Positions 666 through 46,554 of a stretch of 64,000 bases of DNA are shown piece by piece. The notes below the pieces were generated by a model. The model was given only the letters and a program-made list of their open reading frames with translations. It was not told where the DNA came from and ran no database searches. Numbering within the stretch: position 1 is the stretch's first letter; each line of letters begins with the position of its first letter. The position numbers and the translations under genes are program-made. Origin of the DNA: a virus; the IMG/VR virus record IMGVR_UViG_3300037312_000927; one strand, given 5' to 3'.

Positions 666-1661
666 TTATTTCTTTTTCTGAGTATTAATAACGTTAGCAA
701 GTCTGCCGTCGTTAATCTGATTTCTAATTGATTTTAGGCGACCATCATAGTTGCCTTTAACTGCACCTATAGCACCCCCTACTGCTACACCGCCAAGAGC
801 CCCGACCATAGCTCCTCCATCAGCACCTAGGTTAGGATTACTAAAGAACTTATGGACTCCCTTAGGATCGTGTTGAGCTATTACGTTTAGGAGCTGGCCA
901 GGCTTAACTCTCTGAGCGCCAGGCTTACTTGCGTTATATGCGAAAGCTGCGGCCTGGGCACCTTTATTAGCAATGAATCTACCTACACGTTCATTACCTA
1001 ATTTCTTACCAATCAGCTTACCTGCGTAAGCCCCTAAGGTTCCTGCGGCCAATCCGTATCCAGTCCCCTTAGCCAGGGCGGTAGAGGTAGCACGGGTTTC
1101 TTCGTTAAATGCACCTTTAAGGTCTCTGCCTGCAGCACCATGAGCAACGTATCTAGCTGCAGATGAAGTAGCTCCGGGCAAGAACGTAGAGGCGTAATCG
1201 GCAGCAGTATTTATCTTGGCAAGCCGAGTATCTTTAATACCCTTGATTTTATATTCCTGGACATTGCTGGCAATTTTTTCTAAGTATTTATTACCATCTT
1301 CAGCCTTCTTTTCAAGGGCCTTGTTTATTTTAATGGCAGCATAGTCCCCTAGAAGACTTACTCCTCCGCCGATAGCACCAACTTTAAGTCCCCGTTTGAA
1401 GCCGGAACTTCTAACAGTTTTTCCAATAGTGGATACTGGATTTTTAAGGAAGCCACCTAGTCTCTCTGCAATAGGCACTGCAGGTGCTTTTAGGGGACGT
1501 GCTCCGTTCAGACCAATCTTAGTTTGAATATGGTCTGATATAAGATTCGATCCTACCCCTACCGCACCGATAACTCCGGTATCACGCAGTTCTTTCTTGG
1601 TATCTTCTGCTTCCTTAACCATACTAATGTTGTGTTGTAGTTGTGTCAAATATTTATTCAT
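666..1661 (-). CDS. Putative virion internal/ejection protein with glycine-zipper helices
   Basis: 331 aa; MNKYL at the N-terminus and internal GNKYLEKIAS; several GxxxG hydrophobic segments. Confidence 0.6.
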   Translation of the reverse strand: MNKYLTQLQHNISMVKEAEDTKKELRDTGVIGAVGVGSNLISDHIQTKIGLNGARPLKAPAVPIAERLGGFLKNPVSTIGKTVRSSGFKRGLKVGAIGGGVSLLGDYAAIKINKALEKKAEDGNKYLEKIASNVQEYKIKGIKDTRLAKINTAADYASTFLPGATSSAARYVAHGAAGRDLKGAFNEETRATSTALAKGTGYGLAAGTLGAYAGKLIGKKLGNERVGRFIANKGAQAAAFAYNASKPGAQRVKPGQLLNVIAQHDPKGVHKFFSNPNLGADGGAMVGALGGVAVGGAIGAVKGNYDGRLKSIRNQINDGRLANVINTQKKK

Positions 1662-1681
1662 AAGTGTTCAGTGTGGTTAAG

Positions 1682-1704
1682 AAAACAGAGGGGCGAACCC
1701 CTCT
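1682..1704 (-). terminator. Rho-independent terminator
   Basis: AGAGGGG-cgaa-CCCCTCT stem; followed by GTTTT on the minus strand. Confidence 0.6.
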
Positions 1705-1717
1705 ATCTTTAATGATT

Positions 1718-2527
1718 TTAATCGCCGTACAGTTCCTGGGCTTTGGAATCTACAAGATCAACTGCAGTATCAAAGTCAATACCCTTATCGACCAGTGAAT
1801 TAACCGCTGCCTGCTTCTCTTGATGAATGGCATCATGAATTCTTTTAGCTTTGGCGATCTCTTCCGCTTCATCTTTTGCACGGGTTTTTTGACCGTATTT
1901 ATGAGCTCCGTAGATGCCTGCGACAGAAGCTAGTGCCGCTACGCCCGGATGTACTCTGTGCTGCAACATTTGACCGTTGATCACGTCACCAACCAGTCCG
2001 ATACCCGCCCCACCCCAACGGTGATCTTTACCCCCGGCAACTGCTCCACCGATAGTGCCCCAGAGTGCTACTTTCTCCATTACCAAATCAGCGGCGGTTT
2101 CAAAGTCCACACCTTGATCGATCAACATATTGACAGCGTGTGCTGCCTTTTCTTGATATTTCTTTTCCATTGCTTTTCCTTGCCTATGATATGAATGCAG
2201 TTTACCGGCCTCGTGCCCGATTAGGTAGGAACCTAGCCCTGTGCCAATGGCAAATTTGTGAGCCCTAGTTATGTTCGTGGCTCCATGATTCAACGCTCTC
2301 TGAGCTAGGGCCTTAGCGCCTTTAAAGCCCAACGCCCCCGCTGCAATTCCGGTGACAGCACCTTCTGCATGTGCCTTGAGAGAAGAGCCGATATCCCTCC
2401 CAACATCACCCCAGAATGTATCTTTAGGCCCACGTTGTCCATGTTTTTTAGCTATCTTACGCTCTACCTCGGAGGCACCTTCCGACCATATTTTGAAGGC
2501 ATGTGTAGCTTTCTTTTCTATTGTCAT
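1718..2527 (-). CDS. Putative virion internal protein with glycine zippers and two G(V/I)DF modules
   Basis: 269 aa; AVNMLIDQGVDFETAADLV and AVNSLVDKGIDFDTAVDLV; GxxxG segments; K-x-A motifs. Confidence 0.6.
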   Translation of the reverse strand: MTIEKKATHAFKIWSEGASEVERKIAKKHGQRGPKDTFWGDVGRDIGSSLKAHAEGAVTGIAAGALGFKGAKALAQRALNHGATNITRAHKFAIGTGLGSYLIGHEAGKLHSYHRQGKAMEKKYQEKAAHAVNMLIDQGVDFETAADLVMEKVALWGTIGGAVAGGKDHRWGGAGIGLVGDVINGQMLQHRVHPGVAALASVAGIYGAHKYGQKTRAKDEAEEIAKAKRIHDAIHQEKQAAVNSLVDKGIDFDTAVDLVDSKAQELYGD

Positions 2528-5684: not shown

Positions 5685-5698
5685 GCCGCTATTCTACC

Positions 5699-6268
5699 TT
5701 AGGTGTACGACTTCGGGTTAAACGTAGTATTACCAGAGTAACGGGCTTCGATGTCCGTCAGCATCTTGATGGTGTCAGGATAGATACCCTCGCCGTGGAT
5801 AGCGTTAGCAAGAACCGAACTCAGGATGTTAGCATCGGTAGCGATGTTAGGAGCGAATTTGAAAATCGTTTCAGCGTAACGGAGAACTTTTTCCCTGTCT
5901 TCTTGAGCCAGGATACGATTGGTTTTGTATGCTTGTTCCAAGGCTTGCAGGAATTTGCTATGCAGAGCCATGTTCTTAGCGACGTTGAACATCGAACCGG
6001 CAGCGGTAGCACCCAGACCCACAGCCAGGCTACCCAGGCCTTGACCCATGGAGTTACCAACGCCACGGGCAATGGTATGGCCCATGGTTTCCGGTGGGCG
6101 TACATTACCTTGTGTAGTGCCCGCACTAGTATGGGCGTTCAAGAATGATTTCAGGACATCATTTGCAGAGGCTTCTTTCATGAACCCGTCAATGAAAGCT
6201 TCGCAAGCTTCTTGATCACCTGCAAACTTCTCCATGGCGTATTCTACGATTTTTTCGTTGTAATTCAT
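5699..6268 (-). CDS. Hypothetical virion protein with glycine zipper
   Basis: 189 aa; MEKFA, FMKEAS, GLGSLAVGLGATAAG. Confidence 0.6.
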   Translation of the reverse strand: MNYNEKIVEYAMEKFAGDQEACEAFIDGFMKEASANDVLKSFLNAHTSAGTTQGNVRPPETMGHTIARGVGNSMGQGLGSLAVGLGATAAGSMFNVAKNMALHSKFLQALEQAYKTNRILAQEDREKVLRYAETIFKFAPNIATDANILSSVLANAIHGEGIYPDTIKMLTDIEARYSGNTTFNPKSYT

Positions 6269-6283
6269 TGTTATTTTCCTAAA

Positions 6284-7366
6284 TTAAATATTGGGTTCAC
6301 GTTGAAGTGAAGTCCACACATCTTTACTCCTGCCGGTCGTCTTATCTACGCCAGGACTGTACATAACTGCATCTCCTGCTACGGCAGCTGCACCCATTGC
6401 GGCGGTGCCTAAAGTTAGGCTACGGGCCGGGAGCTTTGCTGGGATAGGTTTAGGGGCCTCTCCTGCCATGTTTCTGAAAACGTTACCCATCTGGGTAGTT
6501 TTTCTCTGTGCAAAGTTAGTAGCGTTATTCACAGTAGGAGCGCCGATTTTACCTACAGCTTTGGCAGCCATAGCAGCAGTGCTACCAATAACTCGTCCGA
6601 TGCCGGATCCAATTGCACCGATGAATGCTTCTTTCAGAAGTTCAGCCTTTTTATCAAGGGCTTCACGGGATTTAATTTCCGCTACCAGAGCCTCGGCTTG
6701 TTTCAGCATTCCTACCAGAGTTTTAGCCTCCTTAAGATCAGCTTCCTTGAAAATTCCGTCATCGGTATATTTCTGAGGAACACCATAAACTAATGCTGTC
6801 ACTTTGTCAAATTCAGTGCCGTTAGTTACAGTAGCCAGTTTCTCAAGACCTTGAGAATCCTTACGGAAATCACTAGCTGCTTTTAGCAGTTCAGGTCCGA
6901 GATGCATCTCTCTGTCCTTCAGTTCACCAAGCTCTCTCTTATTTTGAGCAGCCATTTTGATGAAGTAGACTTGTTTCTCTGCGTCGTTAAGTTCTGGTTC
7001 TGAAGAGGTTTCGGAAGCTGCCTTCTCAAGGGCTACTTCTTTACCACGTACGAAACCGAAAATATCAGTTCCAGGAGTTTCAACTGAGGCCGACTTAGTG
7101 ATAGTATCAGGGATCGACAGAGTTTCCATAACCTCTGCGTACTTGCAAAGAGGGAACTCCACCGTTCTGTCATCAGCCAGACTTAGAACTTTCAGGTACG
7201 CAATCGAGTTAGTGGCTTCGACAGCTCTGTGGATTTGTTCCGAGTTTAGATTTAGATCACTAGCGTACTTAGCCAAACCGTCACTTAATGGAACTTTGCC
7301 ATTAAGAAAGTTTTCTACAGTCTTAATGGAAATATCTCTAATTTGATCTGAGGTTATGAATGGCAT
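6284..7366 (-). CDS. Hypothetical head protein, K-x-A rich
   Basis: 360 aa; about nine K-x-A motifs; C-terminal Gly/Ala-rich hydrophobic helices. Confidence 0.6.
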   Translation of the reverse strand: MPFITSDQIRDISIKTVENFLNGKVPLSDGLAKYASDLNLNSEQIHRAVEATNSIAYLKVLSLADDRTVEFPLCKYAEVMETLSIPDTITKSASVETPGTDIFGFVRGKEVALEKAASETSSEPELNDAEKQVYFIKMAAQNKRELGELKDREMHLGPELLKAASDFRKDSQGLEKLATVTNGTEFDKVTALVYGVPQKYTDDGIFKEADLKEAKTLVGMLKQAEALVAEIKSREALDKKAELLKEAFIGAIGSGIGRVIGSTAAMAAKAVGKIGAPTVNNATNFAQRKTTQMGNVFRNMAGEAPKPIPAKLPARSLTLGTAAMGAAAVAGDAVMYSPGVDKTTGRSKDVWTSLQREPNI

Positions 7367-7386
7367 ATTGTCTATTCTTATGTTAT

Positions 7387-7419
7387 AAAAGCGAACTCTA
7401 GATATACTAGGTTCGCTTT
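7387..7419 (-). terminator. Terminator-like hairpin
   Basis: AAAGCGAAC...GTTCGCTTT inverted repeat between genes. Confidence 0.5.
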
Positions 7420-7440
7420 GTTTATTTTAACGTCGTGTTA

Positions 7441-8118
7441 TCAGAGGGGGTAATCGTCTTTTAGTTTTGAATGAGCTCGACTTAATGCATGTGCAAGTAA
7501 CGCTCCTCCACCTACTAACATTGCAGCACCTTTGCCAGCCCTGGTCCTGCCTGCGGAATTACCGTAGTAACTTTCTAAGTGGCGTTTCTTAAGAAATGCA
7601 AATGCCCCTTTGCTACCTTTACCCCCTGCTACGAATTGAGGTTTGATATCGTGGGTAGTAGTAGCGGCGGTATCCTTAGATCCGAACGCTCCTGCAACGT
7701 CGTCGTCCCTCTTGAAGCTCTTCCACATTTTATCGCTGACCCGTGCCTTGACCATACCTGGTTGGGTATTTCGTCTAGCAGCTTGGAATCCAGCGAATTG
7801 TCCAGCTACAAATGGGTTTTTAGTAACGTGAATCTTACCCTTACTTCTCTCTGTGAACACTTCCTTGGACGTCTTCGAGGGATGAGCACTACTTGCCCCG
7901 TGCGCCCCTCCACCGTGCTTAGTTTTAAAGCCCTCCTTACGGATAGCCTCGGCATTAGCCTTGCTGGTCCCATGATAGACCGTGTGATATCCCAGGAGTC
8001 TTTGAGGAGCCCCCTTTGCTAACCCGGCACCTACAGCTCCTTCAATGGCCATATTGCCGTATTTGTCGTCGCCTGTAGCGGCGGCGATCTTTTCTAAATA
8101 TTTATTCATCTTTGTCAT
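7441..8118 (-). CDS. NKYLEKIA-leader protein with an ADP-ribosyltransferase-like (His-type) domain
   Basis: MNKYLEKIAA (likely start 8109); YHGT-x5-AIRKEGF, GKIHVT-x5-A-x2-FA, GMVKARV, DIKPQFV match the ART/Tpt1-like fold pattern; flanked by Gly-rich hydrophobic helices. Confidence 0.6.
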   Translation of the reverse strand: MTKMNKYLEKIAAATGDDKYGNMAIEGAVGAGLAKGAPQRLLGYHTVYHGTSKANAEAIRKEGFKTKHGGGAHGASSAHPSKTSKEVFTERSKGKIHVTKNPFVAGQFAGFQAARRNTQPGMVKARVSDKMWKSFKRDDDVAGAFGSKDTAATTTHDIKPQFVAGGKGSKGAFAFLKKRHLESYYGNSAGRTRAGKGAAMLVGGGALLAHALSRAHSKLKDDYPL

Positions 8119-44326: not shown

Positions 44327-44800
44327 ATGACCCACCCGCATAAAGAACGGATCCCCGCTGTGGCGACCCAAGTTCAGCAGGCGTCGGCAGTAGAAAAGAC
44401 CGAGGCAAAACATCGCACCCTGCGTGAACGCCGCAAGGCTAAACGTGAAGGTATCAAAGTCTCTAAGTCGACTGCGTTCCTCCGTCGCCGTAAAGTGGCG
44501 GAGCAGGAGCAACAAAGGGCAGAGGGCGTTTACGTACAGCGTGAACAGAACCCCGAGCTGAAGGTGTTTGAAGATCCGCCTGTCATGAGTCTCAGCCAAT
44601 TGATGGAGGAGATCTCGGATGAAGAAGCGGCAGCAGGACTTACCGCACTCGAAATGCATAACTTCGAGCGTTCACAGAGTCCTGAGGGGGATGAAAATCT
44701 CACTCTGGAATTCTGGGCCAATCAGGGTCTTTCCCAGAACTCGTTCAGCAACAGTCTGGGTTATTCTCGTCGTTCGACCGTCGACTCGGTCTCCCTGTAA
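44327..44800 (+). CDS. Hypothetical protein (basic N-half, acidic C-half)
   Basis: 157 aa, SD AGGAG. Confidence 0.7.
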   Translation: MTHPHKERIPAVATQVQQASAVEKTEAKHRTLRERRKAKREGIKVSKSTAFLRRRKVAEQEQQRAEGVYVQREQNPELKVFEDPPVMSLSQLMEEISDEEAAAGLTALEMHNFERSQSPEGDENLTLEFWANQGLSQNSFSNSLGYSRRSTVDSVSL

Positions 44801-44954
44801 TAAAGTATCACTAGGTATTTACAAAATGTTTAATAGTTCACTGGATATGTGGAATTGGGATCACTGGCCTGGTACTAGCCGTCCGACCACCCCACCCACG
44901 TCCAAGTAAAGTAAACACTACTCTACAGTGAACAATTCGTTGCAGTAAAAGGTC

Positions 44955-45377
44955 TCACAGAGATCCACCCAGTTGTTGCCTGAGAATACTAAGAGCCTCT
45001 TTCTTGTACTCACGAAATTGCTCTTTAGAAAGATTCAATTGCTTTGCTACATTAGTATTGGTCATTTCTTCACCATCGTTAATGCCATAGGTAAGCTCAA
45101 TTATCTCTCGGTGTGGCGATGGTAACTTTGAGATGATGTTGTGGATTTTATCTCGGTCCATCCTGACTTCGACTTCCGTACCAATAGGGTCGATCTCGAA
45201 GCTAGGATCGTCGGTAAGGTCATCCAAATAGTATGTAAGGTATTTAGTACTGTACAGTTCTCTGAGATCCTTTTCACGGATTTCAGGGAACTCTTTTTTT
45301 AGTTCATCGAATGTAACATCTTCTTCTTTAGATTCGGTAAACTTCTGAATCCTTGCTATTAATTGTTGCTTCCAGAT
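44955..45377 (-). CDS. Phage sigma70-family factor, exon 2 (regions 3-4)
   Basis: IHNIISKLPSPHREIIELTYGI...MTNTNVAKQLNLSKEQFREYKKEAL = region 4 HTH. Confidence 0.88.
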   Translation of the reverse strand: MWKQQLIARIQKFTESKEEDVTFDELKKEFPEIREKDLRELYSTKYLTYYLDDLTDDPSFEIDPIGTEVEVRMDRDKIHNIISKLPSPHREIIELTYGINDGEEMTNTNVAKQLNLSKEQFREYKKEALSILRQQLGGSL

Positions 45378-45604
45378 CACGCTGTTACTTGTTGACCTAC
45401 CTAAGTAGGCGGTAGCTCATTTCTGGCTACTCTCGACTTTCTTTTGTTATGGTCGAGTTCAGACTATCGCATCACCTATCTCTAGGGCCATCTCACTTAG
45501 TCGTTCACGGTGCTTCCGCTTCCGCCCTGTCACCCTCTTCAGGGTTTCCAAGTCAATCAGAGTTGGTTTTCTTACGCTGTCACCAGAGTAAGCCCCATAA
45601 GTTT
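45378..45604 (-). ncRNA. Group I intron (227 nt, no ORF) in the sigma factor gene
   Basis: 5' exon ends in U (CCU) pairing with IGS GGGG; P7 GACUA/UAGUC; P3 CCAACUC/GAGAUGG; GNRA-capped P2, P6 and P8; P5, P9, P9.1 and P9.2 stems; terminal G; removal restores RIVSLP|IWKQQ in frame. Confidence 0.9.
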
Positions 45605-45961
45605 AGGGAGGGAAACAATTCTCATTTTACTCATCTCTTTGAGTATGCGTTGCTGAACCCACCATCCAGCGTAGCTCAGAAAACGTACGTTCATACTGGG
45701 CTTGAACTTCTCAAGACCTACTAGTAGTCCATCATTACCAGCACAGATGAGTTCTTCGAAAATGTCGGGATCGTTCTTGGAATATTTCTTAGCAGTTTTG
45801 AAACAGAAACGCAGATTAGCCTTAATTATTTTGTCTTTAATCTTAGCTTTCTCTTTCTCAGATATGGCAGGATCGTTGAGTTCCATAAAGAGATCGAATT
45901 CTTCCTCCTTGGTTAGGAGGGGTGTTTTACAAATTTCACTGTAGTAGCGGCTTAAGTCCAT
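45605..45961 (-). CDS. Phage sigma70-family factor, exon 1 (regions 1.2-2)
   Basis: DLSRYYSEICKTPLLTKEEE, IIKANLRF...AKKY, GNDGLL..LEKF, RFLSYAGWWVQQRI; 119 codons, spliced product 259 aa. Confidence 0.9.
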
Positions 45962-46013: not shown

Positions 46014-46042
46014 AGTGTAAACTCTAAGTTTACAAAAGTCAA
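46014..46042 (-). promoter_or_regulatory. Class A sigma70-like promoter of the sigma gene with embedded palindrome
   Basis: Minus strand TTGACT-N17-TACACT; GTAAAC-tctaa-GTTTAC inverted repeat at 46017-46033. Confidence 0.7.
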
Positions 46043-46554
46043 TGCATAGTATGGAACTGATAAGTAAAAAAGAAGCCTTAAGCAAAGGGCTCAAGAGATA
46101 TTTCACTGGTAAGCCGTGTAGGCACGGGCATGTTTGTGAGAGATTTGTTAGCGACGGTAATTGTAAACAGTGTAGGGTAAATCTCAATTCTAAGAATAAA
46201 TATAGAGAGGACTACGAGTCGTATCACAAGGAATATTATAAAAATAATAAACACATAGTATTATCTAAGAGAAAAGCCTACGCCCAGAAAAACTCGGATA
46301 GGATAAACGCGCTCATAGCTAAGCGCAGACACTCAAAGGATATGAGAACTCCTGCCTGGGCGAATCTGGAACTCATACGAAAGGTTTATGAAAAATGTAA
46401 AGTAACGACTAATAGAACTGGTGTAAAACACCATGTAGATCATATAGTTCCTTTACATTCTGATTTAGTATGTGGCCTCCATGTGCACTACAATTTACAA
46501 ATTTTACCTGCTTCAGAGAACTGTAGTAAAAGTAACAAGTTTGAAATAGTTTGA
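46042..46554 (+). mobile_element. Free-standing HNH homing endonuclease gene (likely start 46051)
   Basis: KEALSKGLKRYFTGKPCRHGH; HHVDHIVPL...VCGLHVHYNL...ENCSKSNK; paralogue of 27630-28316. Confidence 0.82.

Follow-up and report, generated by a model that had tools for sequence, protein, structure and literature searches.

The virus record IMGVR_UViG_3300037312_000927 of the IMG/VR collection was analyzed over a stretch of 64,000 nucleotides (nt), which is referred to as the window and to which all positions without a locus name relate. On its minus strand lies a gene of a large, uncultured phage for a sigma factor of the sigma-70 family that is interrupted by 227 nt (45378-45604). Very probably, this insertion is a group I intron without an open reading frame (ORF), and its removal from the sigma-factor transcript by splicing is predicted. 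Exon 1 (45605-45961) has 119 codons, covers regions 1.2 and 2 of the sigma factor and ends with ...RIVSLP. Exon 2 (44955-45377) consists of 140 codons and the stop codon and extends from IWKQQ... to region 4. Intron positions are numbered from i1 (45604) to i227 (45378), and all exon and intron elements described below are located on the minus strand.

The split sigma-factor gene and its relatives

The first of the two ORFs at the locus (45572-45961, 129 amino acids (aa)) continues for 10 codons beyond ...RIVSLP up to a UAA stop codon and matches Sigma70_r1_2 and Sigma70_r2 in Pfam. The second ORF (44955-45380, 141 aa), which opens with an in-frame GTG directly before IWKQQ, matches Sigma70_r4, and both are assigned to phrog_351, a sigma factor family of PHROGs. 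Joining 45961-45605 to 45377-44955 results in a reading frame of 259 aa with a single terminal stop codon, in which region 2 and region 4 are combined in one polypeptide, as is characteristic for members of the sigma-70 family. For the exon-1 half, 174 longer related proteins were found. Among the best 120 of these, nearly all have a length of 254-266 aa; they carry region 2 and many of them also region 4 (PF04542 and PF04545), and the top relative is 91% identical to exon 1. The uninterrupted homologues number more than 100, and the majority of them have 259 aa. The conceptual spliced product could be aligned to the best 30 homologues without gaps over the junction, with 243 of its 259 residues identical in the best homologue (P0001). 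In this alignment, the junction motif MRIV(S/A)LP|(I/V)W(K/R)QQ is nearly invariant.

An earlier note on this DNA, which was made from the letters alone, had described the two ORFs as halves of one sigma factor and the excision of the 227 nt as restoring RIVSLP|IWKQQ in frame. Both statements were confirmed by the Pfam and PHROGs matches and by the gap-free alignment to uninterrupted homologues: at the sequence level, one ORF contributes regions 1.2 and 2 and the other region 4 to a single sigma-70-family protein of 259 aa. The alignment places the insertion between codons 119 and 120 (phase 0), where region 2 reaches its C-terminal edge and within the most conserved motif of the protein.

The intronless alleles whose search the earlier note had proposed were found in three relatives. 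In the syntenic loci L122 and L124, the DNA aligns on both sides of 45604-45378 with the 227 nt missing (exon 1 aligns to 6000-6358 of L122), and L210 shows a likewise clean 227-nt gap. The same intron at the same site is present on a 114-kb IMG/VR contig (L209/L216). The two introns differ at 7 of 227 positions. Between the same two phages, exon 1 differs at 65 of 357 positions (35 synonymous and 13 non-synonymous codon differences) and exon 2 at 44 of 423 (39 synonymous and three non-synonymous). In these two diverged intron-bearing phages, both exons are therefore under purifying selection at the protein level.

The exact exon-1 product was found on 14 metagenome contigs of up to 185 kb, and on all three of these contigs that were listed, which originate from different samples, it forms part of the split pair of 129 aa and 141 aa. 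The occurrence of the pair in different samples, together with the second, diverged contig, excludes an assembly artefact. In IMG/VR, the locus L209 contig is the one other intron-bearing contig, compared to more than 100 intronless homologues. A search of IMG/VR with a 17-mer from the 5′ end of the intron revealed one true copy, located on this contig, and three chance matches.

Secondary structure, splice sites and covariation

Exon 1 ends with ...CCCT at 45605 and the last base of the intron is a G at 45378. The choice of 45604-45378 is the sole one with a U before the 5′ splice site, a G before the 3′ splice site and a restored reading frame. The predicted exon junction ...CCCU|AUCUGG... 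would join TCCCTCCCT to ATCTGGAAG, skipping 45604-45378.

P1 (45593-45608) is formed by the exon bases CCCU (45608-45605) and the guide sequence GGGG (i9-12, 45596-45593), with a U(-1)-G9 wobble pair at the 5′ splice site; it was recovered in the minimum free energy (MFE) fold and the same pairing is found in L209. It is followed by the P2 hairpin (45571-45592, i13-34) with a GUGA loop, which contains the in-frame UAA (i31-33, 45574-45572) of the 129-aa read-through ORF. The 5′ strand of P3 (45560-45566, i39-45) pairs with its 3′ strand (45488-45494, i111-117), by which the P3/P7 pseudoknot is closed. P3 and P4 are connected by the 7-nt J3/4 (UGAUUGA). The P4/P5 region (45526-45552) comprises P4 (CUUG, i53-56, with CAGG, i76-79), J4/5 (GAA), J5/4 (GA) and the P5 hairpin (i60-73) with a GAAG loop, which is enclosed by P4. 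In P6 (45507-45525), G80CGG83 pairs with C95CGU98, and the inner part consists of a 2-bp stem with a GGAA loop.

P7 is formed by GACUA and UAGUC with a bulged C102. Its 5′ strand (45498-45504) includes A101, C102 and G103-A107 and is part of the R element GUGAACGACUAAG, and its 3′ strand (45461-45466, U139-U144) is the S element GCGAUAGUCUGAAC. The P8 hairpin (45473-45487, i118-132) carries a GAGA loop. The stems P9, P9.1 and P9.2 (45395-45457) cover i148-173, i175-193 and i195-210, respectively. The 3′ tail (45378-45394) is composed of GUAACAG, three variable bases and the terminal G (omega-G, 45378), with the sequence GUAACAG-CGU-G in the window. All elements that the earlier note had listed, namely the U-G pair of P1, P3, the bulged P7, GNRA-capped P2, P6 and P8, three stems of the P9 region and the terminal G, are present at these positions, and the 227-nt group I core with its splice sites is borne out by the sequence, the MFE fold and the covariation described below.

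The intron belongs to a larger family of related elements, whose members end with GUAACAG-NNN-G directly before unrelated exons. In L011 and L041, an identical downstream exon follows after AAAG and AAUG, respectively, and the L209 intron ends with AAUG. The conserved ACAG was also considered as the immediate 3′ border of the intron; this was rejected, since the reading frame would be lost and the terminal G is located four bases later in L011 and L041. Regarding the periphery, P2 is seemingly absent from most family members looked at.

For the covariation analysis, 55 distinct family members were aligned with MAFFT and the six core helices were evaluated, which corresponds to 1636 cells. In total, 97.1% of the core helix cells are paired, compared to 37-49% if the partner columns were slid by 1-3 positions as a control. 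Changes on both sides of a pair were observed in 288 cells versus 88 ± 7 in shuffles, and none of 500 shuffles reached the observed covariation. Overall, 18 of the 30 pairs are changed on both sides, with compensatory changes in 6/7 pairs of P3, 5/5 of P5 and 4/4 of P8. At the innermost pair of P6 (83-95), 28 members have C-G and 27 have G-C. In P7, three base combinations occur at 101-144 across the bulge (35 members with A-U, 16 with G-C and four with U-A) and two at 107-139 (42 with A-U and 13 with G-C). The pair G103-C143, which is presumed to be the guanosine-binding pair of P7, is invariant in all 55 members and has the bulged C102 beside it, as expected for a guanosine-binding site.

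P4 is invariant in this set because it was fixed by the search pattern. Among variant members, its pair 56-76 is changed from G-C to C-G in L174 and to A-U in L195, and the U-G pair 54-78 is often replaced by U-A. The alternative P4 pairing CUCUG/CAGGG was excluded by P3 covariation (e.g., in L031), and the variant members favour CUUG/CAGG. The resulting order P3, P4, P5, P6, P7, P3′, P8, P7′ with a P3/P7 pseudoknot is that of group I introns. Furthermore, the unconstrained MFE fold recovers every nested helix (P1, P2, P4-P6, P7, P8, P9, P9.1 and P9.2).

The intron family and its class assignment

By an exact-motif scan, members of the intron family were detected in at least 119 IMG/VR stretches, and a second motif revealed around 90 further variant elements. 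The window intron, one of the seed sequences of the family model R1, scores 111.7 bits with this model. A BLASTN search against GenBank phages resulted in matches to intron nt 43-148, both in sense orientation: one between two pieces of a 'P22 coat protein' coding sequence (CDS) of Podoviridae sp. ctn9Y15 (MW202674) and one between two pieces of a ribonucleotide reductase of Roseobacter phage CRP-118 (OR420741). Upstream exons were sampled for 20 family members. Nine of them encode ribonucleotide reductases of class I, II or III, two of which also contain an intein. Four further exons belong to P22-type coat proteins, one to a portal protein and one to a tail protein (PhageMin_Tail), and five have no Pfam match. 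Such a pattern, a conserved element of RNA size in sense orientation within numerous conserved but unrelated genes, marks a mobile self-splicing intron. The family is very abundant and spreads laterally, with ribonucleotide reductase and virion genes as its usual targets. No second copy of the family is present elsewhere in the 64-kb window.

Several arrangements were observed among the family members. The split genes of MW202674.1 (L001 1412-2927) and OR420741.1 (L002 1527-3600) are each annotated as two separate CDS without an intron feature, and in one of these records a spurious 'hypothetical protein' was called within the intron. In L107 (around 1110-2250, minus strand), three serial introns are located within about 1.1 kb downstream of a PhageMin_Tail ORF; two belong to the family of the window intron, one of them as a P4/J4/5 variant, and the third is canonical (RF00028, 72.9 bits, 1112-1380). 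L083 (around 5690-7460, plus strand) has three family copies within 1.8 kb, with the R motif of the first at 5761 and the cores of the others at 6902-7011 and 7343-7452, and the upstream ORF has no Pfam match.

In L051 (10784-13426) and L021 (3-1361), the ribonucleotide reductase exons upstream of the family introns carry LAGLIDADG homing-endonuclease domains, and the exon of L051 additionally has an intein splicing domain. In these loci, the ribonucleotide reductase gene seems to host both a protein-level and an RNA-level parasite. Seven members (L048, L142, L151, L170, L177, L184 and L198) have a long AT-rich sequence in place of the P3-P6 half, upstream of the R motif, and in some of them an ORF start led by ATG is found there in reverse complement. 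They may carry an endonuclease gene in P6 on the opposite strand, or they may be different introns that share only R and S.

Several observations weigh against the assignment of the window intron to group I. The search with a group I covariance model, which had been proposed as a check in the earlier note, came out negative: RF00028 (Intron_gpI), a detection model with a gathering threshold of 50 bits and no definition of the class, left the intron unmatched in a 1.3-kb stretch (E ≤ 1), in a 266-nt stretch (E ≤ 10) and in the window (gathering threshold), and likewise the family elements in the 18 loci scanned. The only matches of the Rfam scans were chance fragments of snoJ33 and RNase MRP and the separate canonical intron in L107. 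The family model R1 in turn had no match in 100 kb of phage Twort, whose three orf142 introns are scored with 64-101 bits by RF00028. Structurally, J3/4 (UGAUUGA) is unusually long and P4 has just 4 bp. P10 is a mere 2 bp in the window, where it consists of A(+1)-U8 and U(+2)-A7 (3 bp in L209). Because only two, nearly identical copies of the intron are located in sigma-factor genes, P1 and P10 are outside the covariation analysis. Finally, the z-score of the fold is modest (-1.86), partly since the pseudoknot is beyond the folding model.

The three Twort orf142 introns are reportedly self-splicing and belong to subgroup IA2, and one of them is said to have been crystallised, in work attributed to Landthaler and Shub (1999) and Golden et al. 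(2005). Since R1 misses Twort, the link of the window intron to these validated ribozymes consists of shared motifs and architecture without a scored alignment. Both have identical R and S strings (AACGACUA and AUAGUCUGAAC), and AUAGUCUGAAC is also found in the gap between two pieces of Twort's gene for the large subunit of ribonucleotide reductase. They are alike in P7, UGAAC, the P9 hairpin, GA(A)G, P9.1 and the GUAACA...G 3′ end, of which the layout of P9, GAG and P9.1 is common to the family members and the Twort introns. Moreover, both are small (around 230-290 nt), lack an ORF and interrupt a protein-coding phage gene.

In the Twort introns, P7.1/P7.2 are inserted between P3′ and P8, P4 has the canonical 6 bp and J3/4 is short, whereas in the window intron P7.1/P7.2 are missing, P4 has 4 bp (CUUG/CAGG) and J3/4 has 7 nt. 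In the window intron, P8 directly follows P3′ (i117/i118) and is the single hairpin up to P7′. These differences in P7.1/P7.2, P4 and J3/4 probably explain why RF00028 and R1 each miss the introns of the other type. Judged by motifs and architecture, the element is classified as a group I intron of unassigned subgroup, with an IA2-like P7-P9 part but lacking the IA hallmark P7.1/P7.2.

Neighbouring genes and interpretation of the insertion

The sigma-factor gene is apparently the sole plausible minus-strand gene amid plus-strand genes for replication and nucleotide metabolism. Divergent from it, a free-standing gene for an HNH/EndoVII-type endonuclease of 170 aa is located on the plus strand (46042-46554), which was assigned to phrog_1035 'endonuclease VII' (E 5e-21) and for which relatives were found in 272 phage records by TBLASTN. 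The gene occupies the divergent intergenic region, which in L122 has a length of only 145 nt. Three states of the locus could be distinguished: neither HNH gene nor intron (L122 and L124), the HNH gene only (L210), and both (window and L209). HNH genes are located at this one intergenic site in the window, in L209 (1393-1836) and in L210 (1550-2071). Their proteins, which appear to be conserved mainly at the N- and C-termini, share 42-48% identity, compared to around 85% for the DNA of the flanking genes. The HNH locus looks like a hot spot for cassette replacement. No general association between this HNH family and the intron family was detected, as an HNH relative is located near one of around 200 family loci, the sigma-gene loci aside.

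Upstream of the sigma-factor gene (46014-46042, minus strand), a host-type promoter-like sequence TTGACT-17-TACACT was observed, which is a consensus match only. The stretch 44815-44957 between the convergent sigma-factor gene and ORF 44327-44800 is non-coding, with an identity of 88-98% to L209 and an alignment to L122 as well. It folds no better than shuffled sequences (z = -1.4 and -0.9) and has no match in Rfam or ARAGORN. The tRNA scan of the window revealed no tRNA genes.

The reading as a spliced group I intron is founded on the exact restoration of the 259-aa frame, the clean insertion, the intron family, the covariation and the canonical splice-site features. Guanosine-initiated splicing in two steps is the textbook mechanism of the class. 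Under this mechanism, the pre-mRNA would fold into P1 to P9.2, and a free guanosine bound at G103-C143 of the bulged P7 would attack behind the U that forms the U-G pair of P1. The guanosine site would then be taken by the terminal G, the 5′ exon would attack after this G, and ligation of the exons would give the mRNA for the 259-aa sigma factor. Ribosomes on unspliced RNA would stop at the UAA in P2. From the sequence features we infer that splicing and catalysis would take place in vivo.

It is extremely improbable that the 227 nt are a dead insertion, i.e., a remnant that is not spliced or a miniature mobile element, that leaves a sigma pseudogene or two separate polypeptides. All core helices are intact and covarying and the splice-site features are canonical, although the missing Rfam match would fit such a remnant. 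The intron is conserved to 97%, while the exons on both sides have drifted by 10-18%, mostly synonymously, and the selection on both exons would hardly be expected for a dead insertion. The break is located near a domain boundary, as might be expected for two separate polypeptides, but it splits an invariant motif that runs uninterrupted through all homologues. Likewise, the last three intron bases supply the exon 2 ORF with an in-frame GTG (ATG in L209), but no convincing ribosome-binding site could be found ahead of it.

The earlier note had further proposed that GTP-dependent splicing gates the production of the sigma factor and that the 129-aa product of the unspliced RNA could act as an inhibitor, for which no support was obtained. 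In this regulatory reading, the splicing efficiency would respond to the guanosine nucleotide level or the translation state and time the sigma factor, and the region-2-only product would inhibit or modulate RNA polymerase. The 129-aa read-through ORF is indeed conserved in L209 and keeps regions 1.2 and 2, the main core-binding surface of sigma-70 factors lies in region 2, and, in contrast to the usual targets of the family, the interrupted gene encodes a regulator. However, the 10 intron-encoded residues are conserved because P1 and P2 are, and an early in-frame stop codon inside the intron is the ordinary arrangement in phage group I introns. More than 100 close homologues, among them the syntenic relatives, do without the intron, so that the phage programme is independent of it, and the intron itself is rare among the relatives, as is evident from the single other intron-bearing contig in IMG/VR; the exact exon-1 product of the window recurs on 14 metagenome contigs. 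This makes a regulatory gate very unlikely. The large number of relatives without the intron favours a selfish insertion over a built-in regulator, and most likely the phage tolerates the intron because of its splicing.

As an addition to the spliced, selfish intron, a collaboration with the neighbouring endonuclease is conceivable and would have to be regarded as doubtful. The HNH enzyme would cleave intronless sigma alleles in co-infecting relatives close to the insertion site, and the intron would disrupt this site in its own carrier and be copied by repair, as is reportedly the case for the psbA intron of S-PM2 with F-CphI and in T3/T7-like phages. Both the HNH gene and the intron are missing in L122 and L124 and present in the window and L209, and the divergence of 3% in the intron versus 10-18% in the flanks is expected after a recent lateral spread. 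On the other hand, L210 has an HNH gene at the same place next to an intronless sigma-factor gene, the identity of 42-48% among the HNH proteins versus around 85% in the flanking DNA suggests independent cassettes, and an HNH relative is within reach at just one of the around 200 other family loci. A broader function, in which the intron and the HNH gene form a module against the sigma-factor gene of co-infecting relatives and/or the splicing efficiency serves as a timer for sigma-factor production, appears less likely still and is rather improbable. If the homing module were real, the gene that switches the phage transcription programme would be a target in phage-phage competition. The three natural states of HNH gene and intron provide a ready system to test the cooperation of intron and nuclease or phage-phage competition.

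Significance and comparison with known systems

Gene callers present the sigma factor as two unrelated short ORFs, and the same applies to the coat and ribonucleotide reductase genes of the family. The annotation of these genes is split because the standard Rfam model misses the intron family. With a model built for the family, many genes annotated as split in viral metagenomes would be corrected.

The closest counterparts from the search of GenBank phages are the introns in the coat protein gene of MW202674 and the ribonucleotide reductase gene of OR420741, which are 75-81% identical to the window intron in the core from P3 to P7. They interrupt classic structural and DNA-metabolism genes, seemingly lack a P2 of the window type and have different 3′ peripheral stems.

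A similar arrangement is reported for psbA of S-PM2, where an ORF-less intron of around 210 nt is said to be accompanied by the adjacent free-standing endonuclease F-CphI, which reportedly cuts the intronless allele at the insertion site. The two systems share an ORF-less intron and a free-standing nuclease gene beside the interrupted gene. Unlike F-CphI, the HNH enzyme of the window is known here by its sequence, and L210 has the HNH gene without the intron.

The earlier statement that sigma factors are not known as intron targets agrees with a limited literature search, in which no intron in a phage sigma gene was reported in titles or abstracts. According to a review, phage introns are mostly located in DNA-metabolism genes (PMC12908238). 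The one reported case in the transcription machinery is a group I intron in the gene for a virion RNA polymerase subunit of PhiPA3, which resembles the window intron in being a phage intron of the self-splicing class in a gene of the phage's own transcription machinery, and the homing endonuclease of this intron is linked to competition between related phages (PMC12908238). In PhiPA3, a nucleus-forming jumbo phage, the endonuclease is encoded inside the intron, whereas the window has an ORF-less intron, a sigma-70-type target and a free-standing HNH gene. The kind of element is well known and the sigma-factor target appears to be new, by which a transcription specificity factor would join the DNA-metabolism and virion genes as a target of phage group I introns.

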